From an uncultured Pseudomonadota bacterium (GTDB taxonomy: Bacteria; Pseudomonadota; Alphaproteobacteria; RF32; CAG-239): DNA of 64,000 bases. The position numbers and the translations under genes were made by a program. Positions 23,964 to 27,401 of the stretch are shown here, one piece after another (positions within the stretch are counted from its first letter, which is position 1; each line of letters begins with the position of its first letter). The notes below the pieces were generated by a model, which did no database searches, had not been told where the DNA came from, and saw only the letters and a list, made by a program, of their open reading frames with translations. The stretch is taken from positions 20,001 to 84,000 of the forward strand of contig CASDYX010000004.1 in the NCBI GenBank assembly GCA_949286215.1, given 5' to 3'.

Positions 23964-26900
23964 TTATTTGTTATATTTAACATAAAAGTTTTTTGTAAAC
24001 TCTGTCATCTTTTGATTTACTTCAGCTTTTGTTTTTACATTTGCTAACAGAGCTTTACAATCAGATAAGCATTGTTCTTTTCTTTTGGTTCCTTGACATT
24101 GGGTTTGGCAACGAGCATTTCTTTGCTGATCTGTTATCTCTACTGCTGCTTCTGCAGCTGCTTTTTCTTGAGCTCTTTTTTCATAATTACATTTTGCGCA
24201 AGCTTCTTTAGGTTCTCCCGTTTCAAAGCATGTTTGCTTAAATTTTGCATTATTACATTGATTTATTTCTTTTGCTTCTTTATCTATAGCTTGCATACAG
24301 CTACTGATTTCTTCTTTAGTAGATTTTTCAACACAAGCCTCACATTTACTTTTCAGAGCAATATAATCTCCTGTATATCTAGAACATTGCTGTTTTAGAG
24401 TATTCTTTTGCTCTTCACTTATTGCTTGAGTTTTCTTCTCTGTTTTTTCTTCTTTTTCTTCTTCAGATGAATTTTCCTCGTTTTCTGTTGCGGTAGCAGC
24501 AGGTTTTTCTTCCGTTGGCTTTTCATCAGTCTTTGTACCATTTAATGCATTGGTCATACTCTCTGCCGTCGGACGATTATACTTATTTACCAATTCTGTA
24601 CTTACTTTGTTTCCGTTAGAATCGTAGGTTATTTTATTGCCGCTACTATCTGTAACAACTTTTGAACCATCTTTATTTTTAACAATTGTAGAACCGTCTT
24701 TGCCTGTAATTGTCGTAGTACCGTCAGGACTGATTACAGTAGTTGTTCCAGTTGATTCATTTATGGTCTTGATACTGCCATCACCTAGATTTTGAATGGT
24801 AGTATCACCATTTTTAGTCTCACTCTTTACATAACCAGCTGTTTTTTGGAAGGCCTCTTGTTCAGCTTGGGCTTTTTCCTCTCTCTTGGTTTCTTCACTT
24901 CTGAAGTCAAAAGCTCCACTTTCTTTACCTTTGGATACTGTATTTACACCTTCAGTAACCGCAGTACCAACACCAAAACCAACACCTAATATTGTTCCCA
25001 GTGCTCCACCGCCACCAATTGATTGACCTTCATTTGCAGCATTAGCTACATTTGAAACTGAATTAGCGGCATTTGATGTAATGTTTCCAACCTTATTAAT
25101 TCCTGAGAGAATGGTTGAACCACCACCTTTGCCATCATCTTCCAGCCACTTATTAACATTGGTCTTTTCACTTTCTAAAAATTCTTTATTAACAGCCAAT
25201 TGCTCCTTCTCAACATCACTACAGTTTCCGGCATCACATTTCTTTTGTAATGCATCTGTTTTTTCCTGAACTTTGGCTACAGCTTCTCTTGCAGCATTGG
25301 TAGAACCGGCATCTTTAATATTACTTGACAATTCACCTGCATTAGTAGCGATATTGTTGGCCAAGGTTTTACTTGAATTTACAATACTTCCGGTTGCGTT
25401 TGCAACTGCTCCTGCGGCGTTAATAATACCATCCAAACCACCGCCACCGGCTTTAATTTGGGCTTTCATATTTGAAACTGTATTGGATACGTTTTCAACT
25501 GTCGATTTAGCAGCTTTATACATATCACTCACATTTCTTACGGCATTCAATCCGGATTGAATTGAACCTTTCAAATCTTTTAATGACCATTTTTCTTTTT
25601 TATAGCTTTGGTCTATACCCATAACAGTAACTTCCGGACAGAGGTAACTTCCGTCAGCTGCTCTAGCGGCCCCTTCACCACTTCCGCCTGCGCCGCAGTT
25701 GTAAACCTGACCGTCGCTTCCCTGAATGTCCGTAAATCCTGCCGGTAAATATTTACCAAACATCAGAGTACCATCTTTACCCGTGGTAAAATATTCAATA
25801 AACGGCGTCATCATTGACAGCAAGAATAAACCTATACCAATATTGGCAAGATGCTTAAAGCTCATTTTACCAAAAATTGCAGCATAAGCTAATGCAACCA
25901 TACCAAAACCAGAAATGATGTAGGCAATTACTCGCAAATCGGCCAAAGTAATCATGGCTTTGCAAGCAATCAACAAGAAGATATTTCCTTCTGCTTCGCT
26001 ACACATTTTAGGTGCTGCTGATTGCGCAGATTCAATGTCTTTCTTGGCATCTGCTAATTCTTGATCTGCACTAGCTGCCTCTGCTAATGCATTTTGCTGC
26101 GCCTCTTCGGCTGCTATCTCTGCATTTCTTTCTTCTACATAGTTTTGTGCTTCTAAATCCTCGTCATTTGCGTTAAAGGCTTCGGCTTTTTGATTGGCAT
26201 TATCTAATGCCGTTTGAGCACTTTCAGCTGCCGCTCTGGCCTCTGCCAAATCCGCTAAATCATCATCATCACATTTACCTTTAGCACACTTTTCTTCTAA
26301 TTTTTTTATCTTTTTGTTGGCATCTTTTAAATCATCTTCAGCCCTATCAATTTCTTTTTCTATTGCTTTCTTTTGAGCTTTCTGCTCTTTTTCCAAGGCT
26401 TTTTGTTGTTTTTTAACTGCGTCATCCACAGCATCAATCTGTTTTTCAGCTGCTTTATCAAGCTCTTTGTTTGCCTTTTTTACCTCTTTTTCTACATCTT
26501 TTTGAGCGTCTTCTGCCTTTTCAAGATTTTCTTTTGCTGCCTTGAGGGCGTCATTTGCCGCTTTCATTTCTTCAGGCGTGCTGGCATTTTTTAATCTTTC
26601 TTGAGCTGAGGCATAGTCCTGGCGCGCAATATCGGTTTGCGCTTGCATATTGGCAACTCGCTCATTATTTTTAGCTTTTTCAGCATTTGTTTTTTCCTGA
26701 ATGGCTGCCACATTACTATTTCTAATTGCTTGATTATTTTGCTGCTGATCCATCCTTTGCTGTTGTGCGTCATAAATAGCCTCTGCTTCAGCATTTCCTT
26801 TTGTCGCGTTATATTTTGCCTGATTTTTTCCTATGACCATTTGAGTATTTTGGCTTAATGACTTCCATCCGCCAACTGCTTCTTCCTCTGGAGCTTCCTC

Positions 26901-27401
26901 TTCAATTACTTGAGACATATCTATTTGAGCTAACTGGTACGAAGACGAACCTGCTGCACTGTTAGAATTATTTGTGGCTGGGGTTGAGGATGCTGCGGAA
27001 GGTGTGGATGCCGCCGGAGTTGAGGAGGCCGCCGGAGTTGAGGATGCTGCTGGGGTTGCACTACTTTCATTAACTGTTACTTTAGGACCGCTATTTTTCT
27101 TTTGTTCATATTCTTTCTTCTGTTTTTCCGCATATTGCTTTAATGCTACAGTGTGAGCTGCTGCATTATTCAACTGCTCCACAAGGGCATTAGCTTCTTC
27201 TTCTGAACAATTTGGATTTCCGTCACAATCTGCTAATTTTTGTGACAACTTATCCCATTCTTGGTTGGATTGCTCTGCCATTGCATTGGTTATATCATAT
27301 CCCCTTACAATCTGAGCATAAACGTCTGACGATTGCATCAAAACACAAACAGACACTATTAACAGGCTTATGCTTTTTAATAAATTAGATATGTGTTTCA
27401 T
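23964..27401 (-). CDS. 1145-aa secreted protein: N-terminal coiled-coil region, an embedded VirB2/TrbC-like pilin hydrophobic hairpin, and a C-terminal Gly/Ser/Thr-rich region with a Cys-rich end
   Basis: It has a signal peptide MKHISNLLKSISLLIVSVCVLMQSSDVYA. The internal segment IAYIISGFGMVALAYAAIFGKMSFKHLANIGIGLFLLSMMTPFIEY aligns with the pilin cores of 27915..28253 (ITFILGGFGLVGIAYSAIIGKVKWTWFAGLAVGLAILAAAGSIVEY) and 27426..27875. A TPAASSTPAASS low-complexity run is encoded by a short tandem repeat near 26975-27065. Confidence 0.7.
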   Translation of the reverse strand: MKHISNLLKSISLLIVSVCVLMQSSDVYAQIVRGYDITNAMAEQSNQEWDKLSQKLADCDGNPNCSEEEANALVEQLNNAAAHTVALKQYAEKQKKEYEQKKNSGPKVTVNESSATPAASSTPAASSTPAASTPSAASSTPATNNSNSAAGSSSYQLAQIDMSQVIEEEAPEEEAVGGWKSLSQNTQMVIGKNQAKYNATKGNAEAEAIYDAQQQRMDQQQNNQAIRNSNVAAIQEKTNAEKAKNNERVANMQAQTDIARQDYASAQERLKNASTPEEMKAANDALKAAKENLEKAEDAQKDVEKEVKKANKELDKAAEKQIDAVDDAVKKQQKALEKEQKAQKKAIEKEIDRAEDDLKDANKKIKKLEEKCAKGKCDDDDLADLAEARAAAESAQTALDNANQKAEAFNANDEDLEAQNYVEERNAEIAAEEAQQNALAEAASADQELADAKKDIESAQSAAPKMCSEAEGNIFLLIACKAMITLADLRVIAYIISGFGMVALAYAAIFGKMSFKHLANIGIGLFLLSMMTPFIEYFTTGKDGTLMFGKYLPAGFTDIQGSDGQVYNCGAGGSGEGAARAADGSYLCPEVTVMGIDQSYKKEKWSLKDLKGSIQSGLNAVRNVSDMYKAAKSTVENVSNTVSNMKAQIKAGGGGLDGIINAAGAVANATGSIVNSSKTLANNIATNAGELSSNIKDAGSTNAAREAVAKVQEKTDALQKKCDAGNCSDVEKEQLAVNKEFLESEKTNVNKWLEDDGKGGGSTILSGINKVGNITSNAANSVSNVANAANEGQSIGGGGALGTILGVGFGVGTAVTEGVNTVSKGKESGAFDFRSEETKREEKAQAEQEAFQKTAGYVKSETKNGDTTIQNLGDGSIKTINESTGTTTVISPDGTTTITGKDGSTIVKNKDGSKVVTDSSGNKITYDSNGNKVSTELVNKYNRPTAESMTNALNGTKTDEKPTEEKPAATATENEENSSEEEKEEKTEKKTQAISEEQKNTLKQQCSRYTGDYIALKSKCEACVEKSTKEEISSCMQAIDKEAKEINQCNNAKFKQTCFETGEPKEACAKCNYEKRAQEKAAAEAAVEITDQQRNARCQTQCQGTKRKEQCLSDCKALLANVKTKAEVNQKMTEFTKNFYVKYNK

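Follow-up and report, generated by a model that had tools for sequence, protein, structure and literature searches.

A VirB2-type pilin module within a 1145-residue predicted secreted protein of uncultured gut Alphaproteobacteria

The gene described here lies in a 64 000-nucleotide stretch of DNA (the window) from an uncultured Pseudomonadota bacterium (GTDB lineage Alphaproteobacteria; RF32; CAG-239), namely positions 20 001 to 84 000 of the forward strand of contig CASDYX010000004.1 (GenBank assembly GCA_949286215.1). It was located by means of an open reading frame (ORF) list at 23964..27401 on the reverse strand (stop codon 23964–23966), beside the genes of a type IV secretion system (T4SS), and encodes a protein of 1145 amino acids (aa), termed the megapilin below. 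Judged by transitive homology, an internal segment of this protein (residues 466–540, the core) is a genuine VirB2-type pilin module; the megapilin as a whole is not an ordinary VirB2, being large, with a distant leader and a score below the curated profile threshold. The best reading of the data is that giant pilins of this kind are a third, modular VirB2/TrbC paralogue of a chromosomal T4SS. An original prediction, made from the letters of the window and its ORF list, had pointed to the internal pilin domain and proposed that the protein might be a pilus-tip or anchored adhesin.

T4SS pilins are currently viewed as uniformly tiny two-helix proteins, with target recognition assigned to VirB5-type tips or separate adhesins. 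Literature searches on T4SS pilins and on these bacteria yielded no account of VirB2 cores inside large proteins.

Homology of the core to TrbC/VirB2 pilins

Two small pilin genes precede the megapilin gene on the reverse strand: pilin1 (112 aa; 27915..28253) and pilin2 (149 aa with a long leader; 27426..27875) scored 37.8 and 28.9 bits, respectively, with the TrbC/VirB2 Pfam model (gathering score 27.9). By using BLASTP, megapilin residues 470–537 were aligned without gaps to pilin2 (38% identity, E 4e-12) and residues 489–546 to pilin1 (34% identity, E 2e-11), as had been predicted for the internal segment; the mutual identity of pilin1 and pilin2 is merely 24%. To exclude homology mimicked by hydrophobic segments, the core was subjected to 2000 composition-preserving shuffles. 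Its Smith–Waterman scores of 117 and 109 lay at z 17.0 and 16.4 above the shuffles (shuffle maximum 58), and z was -0.4 for the two-helix membrane hairpin of VirB3, which served as a control. A profile built from 12 megapilin cores of different genomes matched that of 10 small pilins with an hhalign probability of 99.1% (E 1.3e-18, 73 columns), and TrbC was the top Pfam family for 11 of the 12 megapilin cores (best E 9.5e-5).

The first aligned residue coincides with the putative start of mature pilin2, so the core spans a whole mature pilin, consisting of an amphipathic helix, a first transmembrane helix (TM1), a GKMSFKH loop and a second transmembrane helix (TM2). The gene context is likewise that of the TrbC/VirB2 family, a T4SS locus with adjoining virB3 and virB4. 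The family's small-protein layout, with the leader directly before a mature pilin of ~65–90 aa, is absent: the protein has 1145 aa, a signal peptide at residues 1–29 and the core at 466–540. No VirB5/TraC likeness of the megapilin was found with Pfam, NCBIfam, a PDB sequence search (core profile) or Foldseek. The HHpred- and Foldseek-type checks that had been proposed gave the hhalign match described above; PDB sequence searches with the megapilin-core and small-pilin profiles gave nothing relevant, and a Foldseek search of the megapilin model against the PDB gave no match below E 1e-3.

Modular architecture of the megapilin

All segments described here are encoded on the reverse strand; structural statements refer to AlphaFold2 (AF2) models and their predicted local distance difference test (pLDDT) values. 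The megapilin opens with a Sec-type signal peptide (residues 1–29, MKHISNLLKSISLLIVSVCVLMQSSDVYA followed by Q; 27315..27401), predicted from hydropathy and the n-h-c pattern with a putative cleavage site at VYA/Q, which agrees with the proposal of a secreted protein. Homologues start with an equivalent N-terminus. Hydrophobic stretches are confined to residues 3–32 (the signal peptide) and 473–539 (the core).

The signal peptide is followed by an N-terminal helical hairpin module (residues 30–105; 27087..27314; pLDDT 75–92), closed by C59-x5-C65, which is lineage-specific and present in ~10% of close homologues, and by a disordered S/T/P/A linker (residues 106–176; 26874..27086; pLDDT ~30), in which Tandem Repeats Finder detected an 18-bp × 4.2 tandem repeat (26983–27058, STPAAS units). 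Long antiparallel coiled-coil helices with a C372-AKGK-C377 turn then occupy residues 177–465 (26007..26873; pLDDT 90–96; individual helices 204–272, 276–373, 379–410 and 414–462). The N-terminal coiled coil that had been read from the sequence is thus reproduced, with pLDDT >90 for residues 180–465.

The mature-pilin module (residues 466–540; 25782..26006), delimited by homology, hydropathy, AF2 helices and conservation, has the layout C467...C480-K, amphipathic alpha-1, TM1, basic loop G-K-M-S-F-K-H and TM2. Its AF2 helices (474–509 and 516–539) give the two hydrophobic helices with a short basic loop that characterise the family; the Cys pair C467...C480-K just before TM1 is peculiar to cores of the megapilin type (mega-type cores). 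Homologue alignments place a post-core motif (FGKYLPAGFTDIQGSDG) and a variable Cys-containing loop next (residues 541–603; 25593..25781). These are followed by a helical, Gly/Ala/Asn-rich C-module with a C722-DAGN-C727 turn, delimited by conservation and a hidden Markov model (HMM; residues 604–856; 24834..25592), and by a beta-hairpin repeat array (DGTTTITGKDGSTIVKNKDGSKVV...; residues 857–940; 24582..24833; pLDDT 80–88), which was weakly similar to the single-layer beta-sheet of the CPAP G-box (Foldseek, E 3e-3). The chain ends in a Cys-rich helical tail module (residues 996–1145; 23967..24416; pLDDT 80–90). The C-terminal side is rich in G/S/T/N, and the last 150 aa contain 12 Cys, both in keeping with the original prediction.

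Beyond the signal peptide there are 22 Cys, with CX4-5C pairs at the predicted hairpin turns 59/65, 372/377 and 722/727; this pattern fits an oxidising, extracytoplasmic site for both extensions. Only three parts of the whole-protein AF2 model are good: coiled coil, beta repeats and Cys-rich tail.

Authenticity and distribution of the gene

A strong Shine–Dalgarno sequence (AAGGGAGG; 27407..27414, reverse strand), read from the sequence, lies 6 nt 5' of the ATG at 27401. A homologue search of 5.8 billion proteins returned 244 matches of 830–1130 aa (55–86% identity over most of the length), all 244 of which lack a Pfam domain or source name, and a second search with a 40%-identical relative as the query returned 292 proteins of 458–980 aa. 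More than 500 homologues of ~460–1750 aa overall from independent assemblies were thus collected. Relatives are present in 15 species-level (GTDB) genomes, all of uncultured gut Alphaproteobacteria; these genomes derive from human, mouse and chicken samples, Candidatus Scatocola faecipullorum being among them, and all genomes in the comparison are metagenome-assembled genomes (MAGs).

The ratio of nonsynonymous to synonymous substitution rates (dN/dS) was 0.01–0.28 in every region with estimable dS, a rough figure only, as dS is saturated in most comparisons. An assembly artefact joining two genes, or a pseudogene, is ruled out by the homologues in independent assemblies, the synteny of the locus and dN/dS <1; with the strong ribosome-binding site, these results identify the megapilin gene as genuine.

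No family fitting the megapilin was found in Pfam, NCBIfam, PHROG or PADLOC, and the few named family members are called 'hypothetical protein [Alphaproteobacteria bacterium]', so the statement that it is not a standard T4SS component stands. Matches to PADLOC ZorA (E 2.8e-4) and a PHROG baseplate hub (E 0.011) were weak, of the coiled-coil type, and were dismissed. An Rfam scan of 23400–28700 gave no match. A tblastn search with megapilin residues 455–830 gave no match in 72 556 plasmids, which argues against an origin from a known conjugative plasmid. The T4SS is chromosomal, as shown by a relative within a 1.79-Mb contig and by orphan copies of the megapilin among housekeeping genes.

Conservation and module exchange

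The core is the most conserved region of the megapilin, with 93% identity to the window protein in close and 63% in distant homologues. The corresponding values are 88% and 29% for the post-core motif (541–566) and 74% and 36% for the C-module (604–830). For the coiled coil (177–462), the beta repeats (857–940) and the Cys-rich tail (996–1145), close homologues have 63, 69 and 44% identity, respectively, and distant homologues are not alignable. In nine genomes the megapilin core, the pilin1 core and the pilin2 core change at an equal rate (identities of 94/94/98% in L001, 66/57/61% in L008 and 60/45/42% in L014, where L numbers denote related loci), and dN was lowest in the core among the megapilin regions in four of five pairwise comparisons.

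The modules at either end of the protein differ by lineage and are swapped between relatives, the Cys-rich tail being replaced in some of them. In the comparison with the closest relative (L001), dS of the tail (23967–24416) was 0.28 and that of the rest of the gene 1.3–2.6; a value so far below the rest of the gene suggests recent exchange or recombination of the tail module. At L014, the pilin2 orthologue is itself enlarged (395 aa; 10354..11541) and shares a coiled-coil N-extension of ~270 aa with the adjacent megapilin (634 aa; 11565..13469); the two genes contain a direct repeat of at least 300 nt with 100% identity. Extension modules could therefore move between pilin paralogues, or the repeat could be a repeat-induced assembly effect.

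The wider family of giant pilins

A profile of the three cores of the window, searched against 1.84 billion representative proteins, retrieved 724 clusters at E <= 1e-3, including 486 at E <= 1e-10, with lengths of up to 1741 aa. Core type and architecture were classified for the best 150 of the 724 clusters. Among 80 mega-type cores, 46 were internal, 26 had the form signal peptide, core and C-extension, none had an N-extension followed by the core, seven were small and one was tandem. Cores of the pilin2 type were found with an N-extension (10), as small proteins (17) or in tandem (3), and never as internal or signal peptide–core–C-extension forms. Those of the pilin1 type comprised four with signal peptide, core and C-extension, 28 small and six tandem forms (none internal, none with an N-extension); two more pilin1-type representatives fitted none of these forms. 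The forms with signal peptide, core and extension look like ordinary prepilins with an appended domain. Of the 72 large mega-type representatives, 56 have the C-module, which was absent from all those with pilin1- or pilin2-type cores; among all ORFs of the loci, its HMM matched megapilins only.

Four megapilin paralogues (L010, L011, L012 and L015) are orphans, located outside T4SS loci. That of L010 (9878..12298) lies between murF-nrdR-nusB-def-fmt and glmS, and in MAG HGM16780 an orphan copy (L011) exists beside the copy in the T4SS locus (L009). The fusion of large modules to T4SS pilin cores is, by these comparisons, recurrent in this lineage, as indicated by mega-, pilin1- and pilin2-type cores with extensions, the shared extension of L014 and the orphans. 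The large family with its second conserved module (the C-module), the orphan paralogues and the extended pilin1- and pilin2-type cores are features beyond those of the original prediction.

Several proteins (P0229, P0231, P0232, P0245, P0282 and P0358) carry two to six VirB2-type cores in tandem per polypeptide, with six in the 399 aa of P0231; they may represent polyproteins of pilins, or else gene calls that were merged. One tandem-core protein was labelled 'type IV secretory pathway VirB2 component' by the Joint Genome Institute.

Hairpin downstream of the megapilin gene

A hairpin resembling an intrinsic terminator lies directly 3' of the megapilin stop codon (23933..23962, reverse strand), with a 13-bp stem (AAAATAAGGCACC and GGTGCCTTATTTT), a GAAA loop and a T-run. 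The predicted terminator-like hairpin is therefore present, and its position is kept in relatives: L001–L006 have hairpins with a U-run at the same place, with differing stem sequences, and L008–L010, L013 and L014 have a stable stem-loop 40–60 nt past the megapilin stop. No comparable hairpin was found after the megapilin in L007 and L015. A promoter-like site lies ahead of virB3. It is plausible that the three pilin genes are expressed differently from the machinery genes; the description of a highly expressed separate transcription unit derives from the hairpin and the strong ribosome-binding site.

Possible roles of the megapilin

Inserted in the inner membrane through two transmembrane helices, VirB2 pilins await recruitment by VirB3 and VirB6; VirB4/VirB11 extract them with lipid, and they are added beneath the VirB5 tip (PMC12624023). 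Mature VirB2, TraM and TraA have 74, 70 and 64 aa, and their basic loop faces the lumen of a filament ~8 nm wide (10.1101/2022.04.28.489814). Against this background we tentatively favour, at somewhat less than even confidence, the reading that the megapilin is a modular minor pilin, which enters the T4SS pilus distally or sparsely and displays variable modules.

Following Sec export, the megapilin would take up the position of a prepilin in the inner membrane: its basic loop would face the cytoplasm and its two extensions the periplasm, where 11 possible Cys pairs could form disulfides and staple the helical hairpins. The VirB3/VirB6 recruitment site would recognise the pilin module, and VirB4 would extract it as for VirB2. 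The megapilin would then join the pilus as a minor subunit, in the first or distal layers or sparsely along the shaft, because a ~8-nm filament has no room for ~1000 extra residues on each of its subunits. Since the basic inter-helix loop is lumenal in known T4SS pili, both module ends should face outward, and the coiled-coil stalk (10–15 nm), the beta-repeat and the Cys-rich modules would be shown as variable modules for binding or host contact. The hairpin would keep the three pilin genes expressed above the machinery genes. Homology, sequence features compatible with the topology, the pattern of conservation and synteny are established; membrane topology, extraction, incorporation, pilus position and adhesin function are steps that we infer. 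The proposal that the megapilin co-polymerises with pilin1 and pilin2 and serves as an adhesin at the tip or surface is consistent with the predicted topology, the paired Cys, the rate of core change and the swappable ends.

The minor-pilin reading draws on the complete mature-pilin homology, the pilin-like evolutionary rate and synteny, and on the basic KMSFKH loop, which is like the lumen loops of VirB2, TraM and TraA. It is further suggested by the variable, exchanged end modules and by orphans with other modules, as expected of exposed, diversifying parts, by the 26 of 80 mega-type relatives that consist of a canonical prepilin N-terminus and an appended domain, and by pilin2-type cores that likewise have long N-extensions (10 representatives and L014). 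The Cys pairs at predicted hairpin turns, the conserved stem-loop after the gene and the strong ribosome-binding site also speak for it.

Several points weigh against it. The Pfam TrbC match to the megapilin is at the expected place and sub-threshold (13.2 bits, E 0.11, for the whole protein; 17.6 bits for the isolated core; gathering score 27.9). In an hhalign comparison of the core profile with Agrobacterium VirB2 (one sequence; best listed match to virB2-annotated records 95.9%) no similarity was detectable. AF2 confidence is low for the core and the C-module, and a rerun of residues 455–860 with 63 sequences gave a mean pLDDT of 40. The megapilin may remain in the inner membrane: with bulky periplasmic domains on either end it may be unable to traverse the VirB3/VirB6 cavity or the outer-membrane channel that are described for R388 (PMC12624023). 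An interaction domain within the periplasm is an equally good reading of the conserved C-module. No polytopic VirB6/TrbL-like ORF was found between virB4 and virB8 (11899..18663, reverse strand), so the machinery may differ from model systems. Finally, virB4 of the window (21055..23487, reverse strand) contains an in-frame TGA (22381–22383; ESEVQ-stop-ICRLF). In the 11 related loci with virB4, Arg stands at this position (EVQRICRLF) and VirB4 is intact (810 or 828 aa). The TGA may stem from a nonsense mutation or a sequencing error, or may mark an inactive system in this genome.

The main alternative, less likely than the minor-pilin reading, is an inner-membrane-anchored periplasmic component that would never be exported. 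Its VirB2-derived hairpin would act solely as an anchor and docking element at the VirB3/VirB6 site, and a periplasmic part of this hypertrophied T4SS, be it a stalk, plug, spacer or gate, would be formed or controlled by the coiled-coil and Gly-rich domains. The C-module accompanies the core and no other protein contains it, as would be expected of a fixed structural partner; other envelope subunits are enlarged too (VirB10 with >1500 aa and proteins of 1307, 1537 and 773 aa); the window has no obvious VirB6; and bulk on both sides of the hairpin hampers extraction and passage (PMC12624023). A mere anchor, however, would need neither a full mature pilin including alpha-1 nor exactly the pilin rate of change, swapped outer modules and orphans in housekeeping neighbourhoods are atypical of a stoichiometric structural part, and the N-extension is dispensable in 26 of the 80 mega-type relatives.

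It is improbable that the megapilin is a polyprotein-like propilin, from which proteolysis before and after the core would liberate an ordinary small pilin together with soluble periplasmic or secreted fragments. TrbC and VirB2 are indeed processed at the N- and C-terminus (10.1101/2022.04.28.489814), polypeptides with two to six tandem cores would need processing to act as pilins, and the homology begins exactly at the position of the pilin2 mature N-terminus; but no hydrophobic h-region, and hence no signal peptidase I substrate, precedes the core, its flanks have no cleavage motif conserved across the family, and the scan of the locus proteins revealed no peptidase like TraF/LepB. The strong conservation of the post-core motif and the C-module beside the core suggests that they act jointly with it.

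Foldseek also returned the pore and pre-pore forms of AhlB/SmhB (~245 columns, E 0.14–0.4, TM-score ~0.3), and VirB5 tips have been proposed to have pore-former-like features (PMC12624023). A translocon or pore-former, in which a long helical bundle would insert a hydrophobic hairpin derived from a pilin gene into the target membrane on contact, as in ClyA/AhlB-type toxins, is nevertheless more improbable still: the structural matches are non-significant and of a kind that long helical hairpins give in general, the sequence homology of the hairpin is to pilins and not to toxins, and the Sec signal would lead to insertion into the producer's own inner membrane first. An artefact or decaying gene, that is, a chimeric ORF formed by misassembly or by fusion of a pilin pseudogene and neighbouring genes, is refuted despite the premature stop in the adjoining virB4, given the same architecture in hundreds of independent assemblies and 15 GTDB species genomes, the low dN/dS where estimable and the strong ribosome-binding site.

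Extended to the whole lineage, the minor-pilin reading would predict pili of two small pilins and interchangeable giant pilins, the cores of which are polymerised and display up to ~1600 residues of coiled-coil, beta-repeat and Cys-rich modules, with orphan 'spare' paralogues serving module exchange; this picture is possible and is put forward with slightly more reserve than the reading for the megapilin itself. If correct, it would represent an unrecognised route to T4SS adhesins, parallel to modular type IV pilins and giant flagellins, and would alter the current view in that the pilin itself carries hundreds to >1000 extracytoplasmic residues. Giant pilins would also be a natural test of the cargo tolerated by VirB3/VirB6/VirB4 extraction and by the outer-membrane channel, and a pointer to the molecules by which common uncultured gut Alphaproteobacteria touch host or neighbour cells. 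Host or partner specificity at the level of strains could reside in the variable modules, and the fusions that occur naturally at either terminus point to permissive sites for display engineering on conjugative-type pili.

Comparison with known systems

In host-associated T4SSs, core domains with very large repeat-rich extensions are known from Helicobacter CagY/VirB10 and from the VirB6 paralogues of Rickettsiales. VirB10 and several other subunits are likewise enlarged in this window; such an enlargement of a VirB2 pilin was not found in the literature searches, and we know of no report of one.

The megapilin resembles TrbC/VirB2 pilins (PF04956; VirB2, TraM, TrbC and TraA) in its amphipathic helix, two hydrophobic helices and short basic loop, and in being encoded immediately upstream of virB3-virB4. 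Unlike these pilins (64–74 aa when mature), it has its core amid ~440 and ~600 extracytoplasmic residues, a signal peptide 440 residues away from the core and a Cys pair before TM1.

The Bartonella Trw T4SS (PMC2883598) is also alphaproteobacterial, chromosomal and animal-associated, with several co-encoded pilin paralogues, and, as in the 4 kb checked in one related locus here, no coupling protein is found beside its operon. It contains amplified TrwL (VirB2) and TrwJ (VirB5) variants, the variable surface parts of which are thought to set binding specificity (PMC2883598). Trw variation consists of point substitutions in small pilins, whereas here large modules are fused to one pilin paralogue.

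A modular design is shared with the modular type IV pilins, for example PilB of Streptococcus sanguinis, which are widespread and highly varied in architecture (PMC8179133); the filament system (type IV pili) is unrelated, its pilin fold and assembly machinery are different, and the megapilin is extended at both termini. Giant flagellins (PMC6248924) similarly combine a conserved polymerisation core with hypervariable surface domains, which can exceed 1000 aa, but are unrelated proteins, in which the insertion is mid-chain and on every subunit.

The T4SS locus and neighbouring genes

The first gene past the hairpin, virB3-like (96 aa; 23477..23767, reverse strand; Pfam VirB3 E 0.027), keeps its position in all loci. 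In 11 loci with T4SS genes (L001–L009, L013 and L014) the megapilin is followed by virB3, virB4, p773, p261, p451 and p1537, and in the eight loci whose sequence extends 10 kb upstream, divergent secretin–TcpQ–666 genes are found, then pilin1 and pilin2 ahead of the megapilin. The 773-, 261-, 451- and 1537-aa proteins received no family assignment in the library scans; the latter three have at most one N-terminal hydrophobic segment each. The 773-aa protein, after virB4, sits at the usual position of the VirB5/TrbJ gene, and its gene contains a 96-bp × 4.4 tandem repeat (19812–20229; 32-aa P/T/A/E-rich unit). The repeats in this gene and in the megapilin linker could vary in length between strains.

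The locus further contains two VirB8 genes, a VirB9 with a SPOR domain, a 1307-aa beta-flower/RHS-repeat protein between VirB9 and VirB10 (4491..8414, reverse strand) and a VirB10 homologue of >1500 aa (1..~4480, reverse strand), which runs off the start of the window and has dozens of beta-flower/DUF3659 repeats before its TrbI domain. On one related contig (L016), virB10-virB11 close the operon, and the 4 kb that follow showed no domain of a coupling protein or relaxase.

A complete type IVb pilus cluster, divergent in transcription from the pilin genes of the T4SS (28554..~40182, forward strand), encodes a 666-aa protein, a TcpQ-like protein, a secretin, a PilO-like protein, a T2SSE ATPase, a T2SSF platform protein, a bundlin-like pilin and a second ATPase; its first three genes hold the same position in all eight related loci with upstream sequence. 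Beyond this cluster, at 41476..44361 (forward strand), genes for a VWA-domain protein, a PP2C phosphatase and a Ser/Thr protein kinase lie adjacent to one another.

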